Below, one piece after another: positions 25,664-39,193 of a DNA stretch of 64,000 nt (within the stretch, counting starts at the first letter, position 1; the number at the start of each line of letters is the position of its first letter). The notes beneath the pieces were generated by a model. That model was given only the letters and a program-made list of their open reading frames with translations, did not search any database and was not told the DNA's origin. The position numbers and the translations under genes are program-made. This DNA is from an uncultured Chlamydiae bacterium (GTDB taxonomy: Bacteria; Chlamydiota; Chlamydiia; Chlamydiales; Parachlamydiaceae): positions 640,001-704,000 of the forward strand of contig CAVWGN010000001.1 in the NCBI GenBank assembly GCA_963754655.1, given 5' to 3'.

Positions 25664-28600
25664 ATGATCTCTAGTGTAAATAATAATTTTGAGACGGCTT
25701 TAACTATAAATATGCCTTCAAAAGCTGAAGAAATCCGACAGATATCGCTTCGTATGATTTTTGAGCTCGCAACAGAGTTCAAAGAAGATACTCATACAAA
25801 AAATTGTGAGACAGTCACACATCTCCGATTGATGCCTGTTCTAGATTTTATTTATACGTGTTGTAATGTTTTATATTCCGATGATAATGAAATTAATGCC
25901 ATTTTAAAAGATTTGTCTTTAGAGCCTTCATCAAAAATGAGCGAAGAAGCAATAAAAACAAATTCACTAGTCGTTAACACCACTCACGTTCAAATTAAAC
26001 AAAACCGCATCCAAATGCTTGAGACCGCTTTACAATGCTGTCGACAAAACAAGCAATACAAAGCTGAATATTTGTTACGTACTTTGTTTATCAACATTAT
26101 TAGCTTAGATCCCGCATCATCTCGGCAAGAGGTTATGAAATCAATAGAGTTGGAACAGGAGCATTTAGAAACAGTGATTGACTTGACCGATTTGCCTGGA
26201 AGTAATCAAGAAAAATACGATTGTCATTTAGAAAGTTACTTAGATCTTTTATCCAAATTAGTTGACTTTCAATTCAATTTTGATGAAACACTTCAAAAAA
26301 AATTTACAACAGTCCTCGACCATTTAGAAGAGTTTATTGATAAGAAAGGTGAAGATCAGGTCTCGTGGCAAGAGGAGTCTTTGATAATAAAAAGTCTGGT
26401 ATTTCTTTATACCAGACCTGAGTGGCTTTTTTATAGAGAAAGACTAAAAGCCAAAGTGCTTCTAATTAAATTAAAATCTAAAGAAAATCAGGAGGCTTGC
26501 AAATCTAAGATTGAATTGGAGCTGATTTTGTTACAAGCGGATCAAGCAATCGAAAATCAATATATAGTAAATTATCCTAGAACAATCTATACCACCTTAT
26601 TAAAAGATATCATTAACATACTTCCTTCTTGCTCTCCTTCGGAAAAAATCATGGCTCTATCCATTGGGGTAAAGCTTTACGAAGCTCTTGCTAATGACCA
26701 AGCAGATCCTAATCTAGTGAAAAAGAAAATCTTTACTGCCCTCACAGAAATCATCGCAATAGGTAATACCCACCCTGAAAAACTAGATTTTAGAGCTTTG
26801 CGAGCTTTAACTCAGTGCCGTTTCACTTATGGTTTTTATTTAACGCATTGTTTTCAAACAGAAGAAGAATTTAAATTAGGTTGCGGAGCTCTAGACATGG
26901 TTTCGCAAGACTTTTGGGCTGATCCCAACATTCGCCAAGCAGCCATTGAAATTAAAGATATTCATCTTTCAGTCAAGAATAGGGTTGATTGCATTACGCT
27001 AGATCAACAAAAATTTTTTCTATTAAAACTCTATAAACTGATACTTCAGCAAGAACTAGGTGAGTTAAATGCTTGTTGTATTTATTTAGGACATAAAGAT
27101 AAAAAGCAGCGCAAAGTATCCAGTCTGGAAGATCTTATCAGTCAAGAGTCTATCTGGCAAAAGAGTTTTTCATTATTTTTCTTGCAAAATCAATTTAAAG
27201 AAGCTGAGAATATTATTCTTACTTACCTTAGGTATTATGATTTAAAAGCAGAAAAAATGTTAGAAAAGTATAAGATTAATAATGGGATACAATTTTTTAA
27301 AATTAAGATTAATGAAGATCTGAATTCAGATGAGGATAAAGGTCTTGAGATGATAGTTTCTTTAGATAAAGAAAAGATTGTTGATTTTGTCTCTAATTTA
27401 AAGGATCATCCATTTGCTTTAAATACGTTTTTCAAGCAAGAAGGTGAATTTTGTAATAATAATTCACCGGTTAATTTGACTATGCATGCAAAAAATGGTC
27501 AAACTAAGAGAGTATGTATTTTTAAATCATCTATCGAATTATCCTATGACATTTTTTTTAATATGTTAAATACATTAAAAAACCATCAAGGAAATTTAAG
27601 CTATACAAAACTAACTAAATATACAATAAGTGCTTATGGGAATACCATTTATCACAATGATTTATTAAAAGATATACTTTTTAAGTCCTCGGGTTCTCGT
27701 CGTGAAATGCAAGAAATAAAAGATCTTCGTCATGATTGGAATACTTTAATCTCTTGTTGCCAGCTATTCATTAGTTTGTATAAGTTTATTGATTGCTATT
27801 TGCCAGATGATAACAAAGACGACTTTTATGATGCGCTTGGAAGAGATGCCATTAAGGCTGCAAATATGGCTGCAGTGGTATGTCAATCAACAGAGTTTGC
27901 TTTATACTGGAATGCACAATATTGTGAAATTGCCTATAATCAGTATCAGCGCTCATTGAAAAAAAATGTTCTATCCCAAGAACAAGCAATCTGGTTTTAT
28001 TTAAATGGTCTCGCACGCAGATTGGGATTGATAGACAATCTAGAAGAAATACAAGCACTTGAAGAGTGTATTGACTCTTGTGTGCCTGATACCTATGAAA
28101 AGATTGCACAAGTGTTAGCCAAAAATCAGAATTTGGATAGTTTTTTAGTTATTCTTTACACGGCATATATCAAATCCATATGCATGATGAAAAAGCAAAG
28201 GGTTGAAGAGGGAATGGATTTATTCATCAAATTAAGAGATAATCATGATGAATTTAAACAATTTAAGGCTAAAAAACCTGCGACTGTTAGGAGTCCCTTT
28301 GCATACGAAGAAATAAGTTTTGAAAGGGCAATACAGGCATCTGCTGGGGTTAATCCTCAAAAAGTAAAAAAAAGAGAAAGGCTTGATGTTCACTTTGACA
28401 ATAGTTTTAACTCTTCTAAAACTGCTGAGAAGGATGAATTACAAGAGTCAAGCAACTATACGCTTGCCCACTCATTAGCGGAAAAGAAAAATATTTTGCA
28501 GCAAGCGAAGGAAGTATTAAACAAAGTACAATTAAAGAAAGAGAAAAAACAAGCAAGAGTGACTCTTTGCGCTTCTATAAATTCTTCTTCTTCAAACACG

Positions 28601-29050
28601 TCTTCTTTGGCCGGTTATGTAGTAGAGGAAAAGATTCTTCCTGTTATTAGTGTTAAGAAATACATTAGCAAAAAATGTATGCAAATCTTCAATCGTTTGT
28701 GGGATGAAAACTCTTCATCAAATGCCAACACAGCCTGGGAGCTCGGATCTTTTAAAAATAATATCAAAATGACAAGAGAAGAGGCTCTTAAACTCATTCA
28801 AGCACTGGGAGGAATTTATACTCCTTCTAGGGGAGTTGGTAGTCACCATGTGGCGCATTTGCCAAAGATCGAATTTAATGGCCAAGATATGGGAGGATTA
28901 GCGGATTATGAAACTGGTGAATTTATGATTACATTTACGAATGACAAAGAGTTAAAACATTATCAAATTATTCAACTACGTGAGATGTTGCTCGCACAAG
29001 GTTTTAATCCTGATACAGTAGAAAACGCGCAAGATAGTGAGTCATCATAA
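25664..29050 (+). CDS. Large helical protein with C-terminal HicA-like RNase domain, paralog 1
   Basis: 1128 aa; SD AAAGGTGA; C-terminal ISKK...IK(M/I)TREEALKLIQALGG...RGVGSHH...KELKHYQIIQLREML..QGF. Confidence 0.8.
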   Translation: MISSVNNNFETALTINMPSKAEEIRQISLRMIFELATEFKEDTHTKNCETVTHLRLMPVLDFIYTCCNVLYSDDNEINAILKDLSLEPSSKMSEEAIKTNSLVVNTTHVQIKQNRIQMLETALQCCRQNKQYKAEYLLRTLFINIISLDPASSRQEVMKSIELEQEHLETVIDLTDLPGSNQEKYDCHLESYLDLLSKLVDFQFNFDETLQKKFTTVLDHLEEFIDKKGEDQVSWQEESLIIKSLVFLYTRPEWLFYRERLKAKVLLIKLKSKENQEACKSKIELELILLQADQAIENQYIVNYPRTIYTTLLKDIINILPSCSPSEKIMALSIGVKLYEALANDQADPNLVKKKIFTALTEIIAIGNTHPEKLDFRALRALTQCRFTYGFYLTHCFQTEEEFKLGCGALDMVSQDFWADPNIRQAAIEIKDIHLSVKNRVDCITLDQQKFFLLKLYKLILQQELGELNACCIYLGHKDKKQRKVSSLEDLISQESIWQKSFSLFFLQNQFKEAENIILTYLRYYDLKAEKMLEKYKINNGIQFFKIKINEDLNSDEDKGLEMIVSLDKEKIVDFVSNLKDHPFALNTFFKQEGEFCNNNSPVNLTMHAKNGQTKRVCIFKSSIELSYDIFFNMLNTLKNHQGNLSYTKLTKYTISAYGNTIYHNDLLKDILFKSSGSRREMQEIKDLRHDWNTLISCCQLFISLYKFIDCYLPDDNKDDFYDALGRDAIKAANMAAVVCQSTEFALYWNAQYCEIAYNQYQRSLKKNVLSQEQAIWFYLNGLARRLGLIDNLEEIQALEECIDSCVPDTYEKIAQVLAKNQNLDSFLVILYTAYIKSICMMKKQRVEEGMDLFIKLRDNHDEFKQFKAKKPATVRSPFAYEEISFERAIQASAGVNPQKVKKRERLDVHFDNSFNSSKTAEKDELQESSNYTLAHSLAEKKNILQQAKEVLNKVQLKKEKKQARVTLCASINSSSSNTSSLAGYVVEEKILPVISVKKYISKKCMQIFNRLWDENSSSNANTAWELGSFKNNIKMTREEALKLIQALGGIYTPSRGVGSHHVAHLPKIEFNGQDMGGLADYETGEFMITFTNDKELKHYQIIQLREMLLAQGFNPDTVENAQDSESS

Positions 29051-38700: not shown

Positions 38701-39193
38701 AGTGACTTCTTGCACTTCGGTAAATTCTTCTTCATACGCTTCTCATTCGACCGGTCATGTTAAGGTAGAGGAAGAGGTTCTTCCTGTTATTAGTGTTAAG
38801 AAATACATTAGCAAAAAATGTATGCAGATCTTCAATTGTTTGTGGGATGAAAATTCTTCATCAAATGTCAACACAGCATGGGAGCTCAGATCTTTTAAAA
38901 ATAATATCAAAATAACAAGAGAAGAGGCTCTTAAACTCATTCAAGCATTGGGGGGGATTTATACTCCTTCTAGAGGAGTTGGTAGCCACCATGTTGCCCA
39001 TTTGCCAAAAATCGAATTTAATGGTCAAGATATGGGAGGGCTAGCGGATTATGAAACTGGTGAATTTATGATTACATTTACGAATGACAAAGAGTTAAAA
39101 CATTATCAAATTATTCAACTACGTGAGATATTGCTCACACAAGGTTTTAATCCTGATACAGTAGCAGTAAAAAACGTGAAAGATAATGATTAA
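35798..39193 (+). CDS. Large helical protein with C-terminal HicA-like RNase domain, paralog 3
   Basis: 1131 aa, collinear with paralogs 1 and 2; GSHH at 38981. Confidence 0.8.
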   Translation: MIPRVNNQPDTAVTINMSSKAEEIRQTSLHMIFELATELKEETRTKNYETVIHFRLLPVLDFIYSCCNILHSDDNEINAILKNLSLEPSSKMSEEAIKTNSLALNTPHSQIKQSRIQILETALHCCRQNKKYKAEYLLRTLFINIVRLDPSSSWEEILKSIELEQEHLETVIDLADVPGSHQEKYDCHLESYLDVLSKLVGFQFTCDETLQNKFTKTLERLEEFIAKEFKDHVSWQDRLLITKSLVFLYTRPEWLFYRERLRAKELLIKFNSKENPEACKPKIELDLILLQAHQAIENQYIQNYPREIYSTLLKNIIKLLPSCSPSETIMALSIGVKLYEALANDQADPNKVKTKILATLKQIIAIGDANLEKLDFRALRALAHSRFNYGFYLAHCFQTKKELELGCATLNFVSQDFWADIKTRQAAIEIKDIHLSAKNIVDCVKLDRQKFLLIQLYKLLLQQEFYELNDCFRYSMQANKQELKVVGLTSSNLEDFISQEPVSQKNFSLFFLENQFEKAENLLHTYLMFYHLKAKKMLENDYPKSFMRFYDFKADKNTDDKQFFNVTVSLDIEKIINFVSKLNDYPLAVNRFVEKENRLLNDYSQVDISMMIGDSKSNKIPLFKSSTEIFYNIYHTVLNTLKSRQGNLSYTKLTQYTVNAYSHSIWNSDLLKNILSLPSGSRRAKQASKKLRHDWNTLLSCCELAIDKYKFIDCYLPDDHDNFYIPLVENAFDAADIGAVVSKSKEHTLYWNEKYCEIAYNHYQHSLGKNLPSQEQALCFYLYGLARKLGVTDKLEEIQAFEELIDSCVPDTYEEIAEILVENQNVKNSSLVILCIAYIKSICMMKKQRVEEGMNLFIKLRDNYFVVEKVKEKKHTTVMNSMTHEPMICKMELMTSAWFDLQKVKTREEFNFYFDDSSHSSTTAEKDELQESSNCMLANPLVEKKNIVQQAREILKKIKLKKEKKQARVTSCTSVNSSSYASHSTGHVKVEEEVLPVISVKKYISKKCMQIFNCLWDENSSSNVNTAWELRSFKNNIKITREEALKLIQALGGIYTPSRGVGSHHVAHLPKIEFNGQDMGGLADYETGEFMITFTNDKELKHYQIIQLREILLTQGFNPDTVAVKNVKDND

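Follow-up and report, generated by a model that had tools for sequence, protein, structure and literature searches.

Three tandem large proteins of a parachlamydial bacterium end in a diverged HicA-like domain: a candidate host-directed effector family

How can a bacterium hold three copies of a toxin-like domain with no antitoxin beside them, and why should each copy be placed at the very end of a protein of more than 1100 amino acids (aa)? This question is raised by a gene array in a 64,000-nucleotide (nt) stretch of DNA from an uncultured bacterium of the Parachlamydiaceae (assembly GCA_963754655.1, contig CAVWGN010000001.1, positions 640,001 to 704,000 of the forward strand), which in its full length is called here the window. 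HicA is a small bacterial toxin that is kept in check by HicB. The original prediction, made from the letters of the window, was that three large paralogs are tipped with a HicA-like RNase domain, lack an antitoxin and may be delivered into a eukaryotic host. In this paper we looked at the sequence, predicted structure, relatives and genomic setting of these proteins. The C-terminal domain (C-domain) is most probably a diverged HicA homolog that stands outside the Pfam family as now defined, and the best reading of the array, to which we give about an even chance, is a host-directed, toxin-tipped effector family whose secretion, RNase activity and host target we infer.

The array consists of three open reading frames (ORFs) on the forward strand, which lie exactly where the original prediction had placed them and whose translations are free of stops. 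They encode collinear proteins of 1128 aa (paralog 1, P0001; 25664-29050), 1131 aa (paralog 2, P0002; 31675-35070; the reference copy for alignments and models) and 1131 aa (paralog 3, P0003; 35798-39193), with the layout seen in paralog 1 of a polar N-terminus, a helical body, a linker and the HicA-like C-domain. Copy 2 is 75% and copy 3 is 69% identical to copy 1, and the mean column identity is 84%. The N-termini match those quoted earlier. The C-terminal block (ISKK.MQIF..LW, then GVGSHH, then YQIIQLRE) is present in all three paralogs as had been described, but it starts one residue later than claimed. The basic patch KKEKK(QAR) that was said to precede it lies at residue 958 of copy 1 and residue 961 of both other copies, and is followed by a Ser-rich stretch. 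Alignment of the upstream regions reveals a conserved AT-rich element of 40 nt before each paralog (25583-25622 on the forward strand for paralog 1; 31420-31459 and 35686-35725 for paralogs 2 and 3). It has three matches in the window where none is expected, and the same three are the total for the genome (3.16 Mb). Since the element occurs once before each gene and nowhere else in the genome, the duplicated unit took its regulatory region along. Each of the three genes also has a AAAGGTGA ribosome-binding site directly before its ATG, and promoter and terminator scans gave the same counts as shuffles.

What, then, is the C-domain? In paralog 2 it spans residues 1001-1128 (34675-35058, forward strand), with a HicA-like core at about residues 1035-1124, and the corresponding stretches of paralogs 1 and 3 lie at approximately 28652-29035 and 38795-39178. 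No other part of the family is so well conserved. An alignment restricted to the C-domains of 22 sequences (A4) was compared by hhalign with an alignment of 24 Pfam-positive HicA domains from chlamydial genomes (A6), and the two match with 89.3% probability and an E-value of 2.1e-6 over 65 columns, GSH falling on GSH; the reversed control gave 0.2% and 30 column shuffles gave at most 3.4%. When PDB sequences were searched with the A4 profile, the third-best match was the HicA of S. pneumoniae (E 1.3), with GKGSH aligned on GKGSH; the A2 profile found no relevant match among PDB sequences. Sub-threshold Pfam HicA matches were seen in 2 of the 22 family C-domains (best E 0.023), and in the whole window genome HicA_toxin has 0 matches at E<=1. 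A bridge between the two groups is the protein L061 (25-1815, forward strand, genome G301), a large helical protein with a HicA-like domain near its C-terminus, where the same residues are matched by A4 with 16 bits and by the HicA profile with 31 bits. L061 also carries, after its HicA-like domain, a strongly basic Lys/Arg-rich tail resembling a nuclear localisation signal.

The C-domain structure was predicted with AlphaFold from a 31-row alignment, with a mean predicted local distance difference test (pLDDT) of 86.5; DSSP assigns both helices in this model and only short strands. Comparison of the model with 48,161 PDB chains in VIA-align places HicA chains at ranks 1-4 (T. thermophilus 1whz, B. 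pseudomallei 6g26_E, Y. pestis 4p78_D and S. pneumoniae 5yrz_D) and at rank 9 (E. coli 6hpb_C), with a root mean square deviation of 2.7-3.5 Å over 52-67 residues, the targets having a length of 52-70 residues. This is a weak structural case, made on a model, and its weight comes from one family filling the top ranks. The core appears to align with HicA as alpha-beta-beta-beta-alpha, and all alignments give one register: the helix 'TREEALKLIQALGG' is HicA helix 1, G-S-H is the HicA G-x-H, 'FMITFT' is the third strand and 'LKHYQIIQLRE' is the last helix. There are also differences from HicA, namely an insertion of ~20 residues after the second strand of the core, a beta-alpha extension of ~35 residues N-terminal to the core (which holds the IF..LW helix), the loss of the Pro of the HicA 'vP.H' strand and four family-specific conserved residues with no HicA counterpart (Y114, Q115, Q118 and R120). 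The earlier description as a HicA-like domain is therefore upheld as remote homology, by the hhalign probability and the VIA-align ranks, but not as a plain HicA, which Pfam, the insertion and the extension speak against.

If the C-domain descends from HicA, is its active site kept? All 22 aligned C-domains of the family have G73 and H75, which align to the HicA GSH, even though relatives from other genomes share just 33-67% C-domain identity with the window's domain. In paralog 2 the His is His1065 (codon 34867-34869, forward strand), the predicted catalytic residue, and its counterparts are encoded at 28844-28846 (paralog 1) and 38987-38989 (paralog 3). In a review of HicA toxins (PMC11594946) Gly22 and His24 of BpsHicA and His28 of YpHicA3 are given as needed for toxicity, and His36 of the S. 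pneumoniae HicA as needed for toxicity or RNase activity. The invariance of this pair, together with the role of the HicA Gly and His, suggests that a family-defining catalytic signature was kept.

Analysis of substitutions across the three window paralog pairs (Nei-Gojobori) gives a nonsynonymous to synonymous ratio (dN/dS) of 0.12-0.21 for the C-domain (columns 1001-1142) at dS 0.09-0.27. With such dS values the conservation of the C-domain is not just the result of recent gene conversion, and the domain is under purifying selection. Body columns 101-500 and 701-880 have a dN/dS of 0.32-0.49, a fast-evolving body segment (columns 501-700; 33175-33774, forward strand) reaches 0.83-1.11 and the tether (columns 881-1000) 1.14-1.63. 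The pattern is that of a constrained warhead on a diversifying carrier.

Prediction of the full-length structure of paralog 2 (AlphaFold, 23-row alignment; mean pLDDT 73.6, predicted template modelling score 0.69) shows how this carrier may be built. The first 17 residues (31675-31725, forward strand) are polar, have a pLDDT <50 and form a candidate secretion signal; Ser, Thr, Asn, Gln and Pro make up 38% of residues 2-26 in 23 family members vs 25% in 24 housekeeping proteins encoded in the window, a compositional difference among sequences that are related and not independent. The body (residues ~115-873; 32017-34293, forward strand) is modelled as an alpha-solenoid, in which DSSP finds ~40 paired helices of 10-25 residues with a pLDDT mostly of 75-96, broken by a small beta insert at residues 545-621 (33307-33537). 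Foldseek with the whole model returns only long solenoids of the TPR/HEAT type (CTR9, importins, CRM1 and spliceosomal HAT-repeat proteins), with E-values down to 1e-4 at TM-scores of just 0.08-0.18, which for this model is an architectural likeness and no family assignment. The helical carrier with a possible TPR-like solenoid that had been proposed is thus what the model gives. Weak Sel1/TPR-repeat sequence matches at profile positions 331-408 are consistent with it; self-hhalign of the protein detects internal repeats with a probability of at most 14%. In the ESM Atlas the whole protein has no usable match, and for residues 100-480 the scores are at most 0.83, which is chance level, with one TPR_EDRF1 lead at 0.80. 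Between body and C-domain lies a tether (residues 867-1000; 34273-34674, forward strand) that is predicted to be mostly disordered, with a pLDDT <50 at residues 867-948 and 966-1000 and one predicted helix at residues 941-968 (34495-34578), which includes KKEKKQAR. The basic helix followed by a low-complexity linker rich in Ser, Thr and Pro is conserved across the family, the linker being Ser-rich at residues 966-1000 in paralog 2. No transmembrane segment and no Walker A/NTPase motif were found in the window proteins.

Another question is where the antitoxin could be. The regions 3' of the three genes have ~30 bp in common and no common small ORF, the small flanking ORFs of the array have no Pfam match, and the original statement that no hicB lies near the copies holds. 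The same was found for the whole genome, in which both HicB families stay under the cut-off (PF15919 best E 0.29, PF05534 best E 0.72). Judging from a homolog of SctV/FHIPEP, the export-gate protein of type III systems, in the window's own genome (E 5e-227), the bacterium possesses a type III secretion system (T3SS).

The C-domain is not confined to the window. An exhaustive search by phmmer, with the 141 C-terminal residues as query, gave 33 cluster representatives, and 29 of these are credible; most are 960-1370 aa long with the domain at the C-terminal end, alongside a few short proteins and fragments, and all share one type of C-domain. Four representatives, P0009 (an adhesin), P0024 (a SNF2 helicase), P0029 (13 PG_binding_1 repeats) and P0034, were dropped from the family, because they are repeat proteins that pile up weak matches and lack the GSH His. 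The paralogs therefore form a family, as had been supposed, with 29 credible clusters of nearly all ~1100 aa. Pfam and NCBIfam do not match the three full proteins, and in 23 full-length members Pfam (E<=0.05) yields only three isolated matches at chance level. Since the family recurs elsewhere with equal architecture and the C-domain is under purifying selection, the observation is not a product of chance. It is a rare family of soluble proteins from environmental chlamydiae. A protein homolog search with profile A3 found only the window's own three proteins, a metagenome contig scan with A7 found no relative, and a scan of reference genome contigs with a single window protein found 1 locus, in a metagenome-assembled genome of the Parachlamydiales. 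This rarity indicates that the family does not serve a core chlamydial function.

One relative (G006), of another genus in the same family-level group as the window genome, has three loci. One of its homologs lies between acetate kinase and pseudouridine synthase, with no conserved partner gene. Two of its copies are ~95 kb apart, dispersed rather than tandem; the third (L065:5698-9134, on contig 2) is broken up into two overlapping ORFs (706 and 454 aa), either because a frameshift turned it into a pseudogene or through an error of assembly. In a neighbour-joining tree (Biopython, no support values) the window trio groups together and is sister to the relative's copies, which suggests that the array is a lineage-specific expansion.

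Is a large protein that ends in HicA a peculiarity of this family? A HicA_toxin scan of 200 sampled genomes of the phylum gave 91 matches in 58 genomes, and 20 of the 91 lie inside frames of at least 600 aa, in 15 of the 200 genomes. Fourteen of these 20 loci were retrieved (L046-L059, from 14 genomes). The proteins are 637-878 aa long and in 14 of 14 the HicA domain is at the extreme C-terminus, after a low-complexity linker rich in Pro, Ser and Thr. They begin with a polar, Ser-rich N-terminus, many of the bodies share homology with one another, and for 9 of the 14 Pfam detects no second domain. The genes sit among housekeeping genes, and no HicB was found among 68 flanking ORFs. One of them (L049:969-2963) has directly upstream a eukaryote-type ubiquitin C-terminal hydrolase (UCH; L049:2967-3884, reverse strand, E 1.8e-29), so that, as far as their sequences tell, two candidate host-directed proteins may lie there side by side. 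In L054, a reading frame directly upstream of the large HicA-tipped gene (L054:56-634, forward strand) has at its end a weak match to HicA_toxin (E 0.004), which suggests that HicA-tipped genes were duplicated in tandem elsewhere too.

The window family is a diverged instance of this recurrent chlamydial design, which consists of a large carrier, a flexible tether and an antitoxin-free domain of the HicA type. It and the canonical HicA-tipped proteins (620-890 aa) have in common the phylum, the polar N-terminus, the Pfam-blank body, the linker, the C-terminal position of the domain and the lack of a HicB neighbour. In the canonical proteins, by contrast, HicA passes or nearly passes the Pfam cut-off; they are also shorter, and none of them is found in the window's genome. 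A wider and more tentative proposal is that environmental chlamydiae have repeatedly made HicA a tethered warhead on solenoid proteins that are injected into the host and cut host RNAs, in which case the 620-890-aa proteins would be the mainstream and the window trio a diverged branch; we hold this to be possible, and somewhat doubtful in its full extent.

How could such a protein work? As an effector, it would be exported into the amoebal host cell, probably via the type III system, where the tethered HicA-like domain would cut, or at least bind, host RNA, and the solenoid would give targeting or partner binding. An antitoxin could be dispensable if the substrate is in the host, if the protein is held export-competent or unfolded, or if the body restrains the nuclease while it is in the bacterium. 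We favour this reading from the HicA homology, the kept catalytic pair, the selection, the lack of HicB, a chlamydial genome with T3SS, the architecture and the parallels in the phylum.

A number of results weigh against it. Pfam HicA_toxin (PF07927), whose gathering cut-off is 27 bits, leaves all three copies unmatched even at E<=10. When the C-domain model is run against the PDB with Foldseek, nothing comes out at E<=0.001 and HicA is not listed, and from the two comparisons with HicA that had been proposed the profile-profile one was positive and this one was negative; VIA realignment of Foldseek's 125 chains gives only YTH and R2D2, at Z 2.1-2.4. The Z scores of the HicA chains are themselves weak (3.4-4.0 for ranks 1-4, down to 2.5 at rank 9), in a range under 8 where VIA-align cautions that a score may reflect a common arrangement, and alone they would not convince. 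The GSH loop is poorly modelled, with a pLDDT of ~61 in the domain model and <50 at residues 1061-1067 of the full model. P0020, a family C-domain outside the 22-sequence alignment, has no GSH His, and a conserved His by itself is no proof of nuclease activity. The N-terminal signal is a matter of composition in related sequences. Homology between the bodies of the window family and those of the large HicA-tipped proteins is undetectable. The family was found in 0 of 3 genomes of the same genus, and among 400 sampled genomes of the phylum a match beyond the marginal was seen only in the window's own genome.

These points leave room for other explanations. One option is that the likeness to HicA is convergent or a matter of chance, the C-domain being a small alpha/beta domain with no relation to HicA. 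Such a view would fit the Pfam and Foldseek results, the top structural Z of 4.0 and an hhalign probability that at 89% stays below 95%. Against this stand four independent lines that lead to one family in one register, namely the profile-profile match with its controls, the structural ranks, the profile match to a PDB sequence and the bridge L061; the motif that aligns is moreover the HicA catalytic motif. We therefore consider chance likeness quite improbable. A related option accepts the fold and gives up the catalysis, the module being a non-catalytic adaptor of dsRBD (double-stranded RNA-binding domain) type that binds RNA or protein on a scaffold, in the host or in the bacterium. The HicA fold is described as dsRBD-type (PMC9424270, PMC11594946), several eukaryotic dsRBDs are among the weak Foldseek rows, and the insertion, the residues Y114, Q115, Q118 and R120 and the lost Pro of the 'vP.H' strand could all be read in this way. 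A harmless domain would also trivially explain the missing antitoxin. Yet a Gly-x-His kept in 22 of 22 domains, against a background identity of 33-67%, is what is expected of an active site and not of a binding surface, and we regard a purely binding role as unlikely.

The main alternative keeps the RNase inside the bacterium. The proteins would be non-secreted, self-inhibited fused toxins in the manner of CapRel or of fused HicA, with the solenoid acting as both cis-antitoxin and sensor, and the HicA-like RNase would be released by phage, mobile elements or stress, leading to abortive infection or addiction. In the main text of his survey Gerdes (2024; PMC10865869) proposes cis-regulated phage defence for fused, monocistronic HicA classes (11-14), among them class 13, of 340-440 aa with an alpha-helical N-region and a C-terminal HicA, and class 14, which is SMC-HicA. 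The window proteins resemble these classes in the monocistronic gene, the C-terminal domain of the HicA type, the mainly helical protein and the lack of a separate antitoxin; the insertion sequence (IS) elements that flank the array, the sensor-like fast-evolving segments and the patchy distribution of the family could also be taken in favour of defence. The window proteins are, however, 2.5-3 times larger and their HicA domain is divergent, and the HicB/RNase H-like, DNA-binding or SMC domains that classes 11-14 carry were not found in the window family; nor was an NTPase or Walker A motif. No PADLOC defence model is convincing, the best being Can1 with E 0.018 on 1 of 4 proteins, which was judged a chance match. 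The relative's homolog lies outside any defence island, between its acetate kinase and pseudouridine synthase genes, and the canonical HicA-tipped genes have housekeeping surroundings, one with the UCH deubiquitinase beside it. In the full-length model, a tether of ~130 mostly disordered residues also speaks against a tightly docked inhibitor. The words 'chlamydia' and 'secret' occur 0 times in the main text of the Gerdes survey. Taken together, a self-inhibited bacterial toxin seems to us rather unlikely, although it deserves to be kept in mind, and the host-directed effector remains the reading that we prefer.

How does such an effector family compare with known systems? The HicA of type II hicAB modules (PF07927, COG1724) is alike in Gly-x-His and apparently in the alignment of the alpha-beta-beta-beta-alpha core. 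It is, however, a stand-alone protein of 50-100 aa, whereas the window domain is fused to ~1000 residues, and it has a HicB partner, whereas the window genome has no HicB over the cut-off and no adjacent small partner ORF. With classical polymorphic toxin systems the window family shares only the extreme C-terminal position of the toxin; their trafficking or RHS domains, variable C-terminal cassettes and downstream immunity gene were not found here. AvrRxo1 of Xanthomonas keeps a neighbouring antitoxin or chaperone-type partner. It belongs to the zeta kinase superfamily, unlike HicA, and is much smaller. As a T3SS effector that is also a relative of toxin-antitoxin (TA) toxins (PMC4938570), it sets a precedent for the use of a TA-toxin fold as a type III effector vs a eukaryotic host.

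HicA itself is described as a C-terminal warhead of S8-PTS proteins and of an RHS toxin, which are secreted between bacteria (PMC9424270). According to the same source these domains are ~50% identical to TA HicAs, follow BetaH/S8-peptidase or RHS domains, are accompanied by immunity genes and act on rival bacteria; the window family differs in all of these features. A parallel, in the 'polymorphic-toxin-like' effectors of amoeba and arthropod endosymbionts, was described by Zhang et al. (2012; PMC3482391), where toxin domains of amoeba endosymbionts are placed at the C-terminal ends of large Sel1, ankyrin or TPR proteins without immunity genes and are predicted to be host-directed, with a Parachlamydia nuclease candidate named. 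The window family is alike in having a C-terminal toxin domain on a large solenoid or repeat protein, no immunity gene and an intracellular producer, whilst it has no recognised trafficking or RHS domains, and HicA occurs 0 times in the 300,000 characters of that paper that were searched. In the open-access literature, including the main text of the Gerdes survey, no description of HicA-tipped large chlamydial proteins was found. A toxin-tipped effector without immunity is thus of a known kind; the novelty is a domain derived from HicA and invisible to Pfam, carried by a solenoid family of ~1100 aa that lacks annotation.

The surroundings of the array are rich in mobile and repeated DNA, and the IS elements and palindromes that had been noted as its neighbours are indeed there. 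An IS607-type element (29118-31264, forward strand) lies between paralogs 1 and 2 and consists of a MerR-HTH/serine recombinase of 200 aa overlapping a TnpB of 515 aa (Pfam Resolvase E 1.5e-19, Cas12f1-like_TNB E 1.2e-12). Downstream of paralog 3 is an IS481-type transposase (39632-40786, forward strand; Pfam rve_3, rve and LZ_Tnp_IS481), which is bounded by inverted repeats of 57 nt (39543-39599 and 41277-41333); these repeats (within 39535-39602 and 41277-41338) are made of three direct repeats of ~22 nt. Palindromic elements with a GGCCCTTCAGGCC-type core (24491-25440, 35175-35555, 39273-39397 and 41353-41500) flank the array and fill its spacers, and they look like repetitive extragenic palindromes or miniature inverted-repeat transposable elements. 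There is a perfect inverted repeat of 98 nt at 24706-24803/24842-24939. An ORF of 129 aa that overlaps the palindromic elements (24929-25318) is probably not a gene.

Further away, a Hc1 histone H1-like protein at the start of the window (169-576, forward strand; E 9e-22) shows the genome to be chlamydial. A protein with a PRTase-CE domain (12505-13773, reverse strand; E 2.8e-10) is encoded 12 kb upstream of the array. A 433-aa protein (48458-49759, reverse strand) has the eukaryote-type N-terminal domain of the opioid growth factor receptor (OGFr_N, E 3e-20) and may be a further candidate host-interaction protein. At E<=0.001 Pfam matches none of four other ORFs: 2849-5524 (reverse strand, 891 aa), 19601-21133 (forward strand, 510 aa), 52778-53884 (reverse strand, 368 aa) and 62049-63599 (reverse strand, 516 aa).

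What would the array mean for the biology of these obligate intracellular bacteria? The family is otherwise unannotated, with 23 full-length members that have no Pfam domain. If its proteins are exported, they would count as the first RNase effectors of the HicA type against a eukaryotic host, the chlamydial effector repertoire would gain RNA cleavage, and the family would offer a concrete example of a TA toxin that was recruited to manipulate the host. Among the HicA matches in the sampled chlamydial genomes about one in five is no TA toxin, a tally that bears on the counting of 'TA systems' in intracellular bacteria. Should the phylum-wide proposal be true, a TA-derived RNase would constitute an antitoxin-free class of type III effectors across the phylum.

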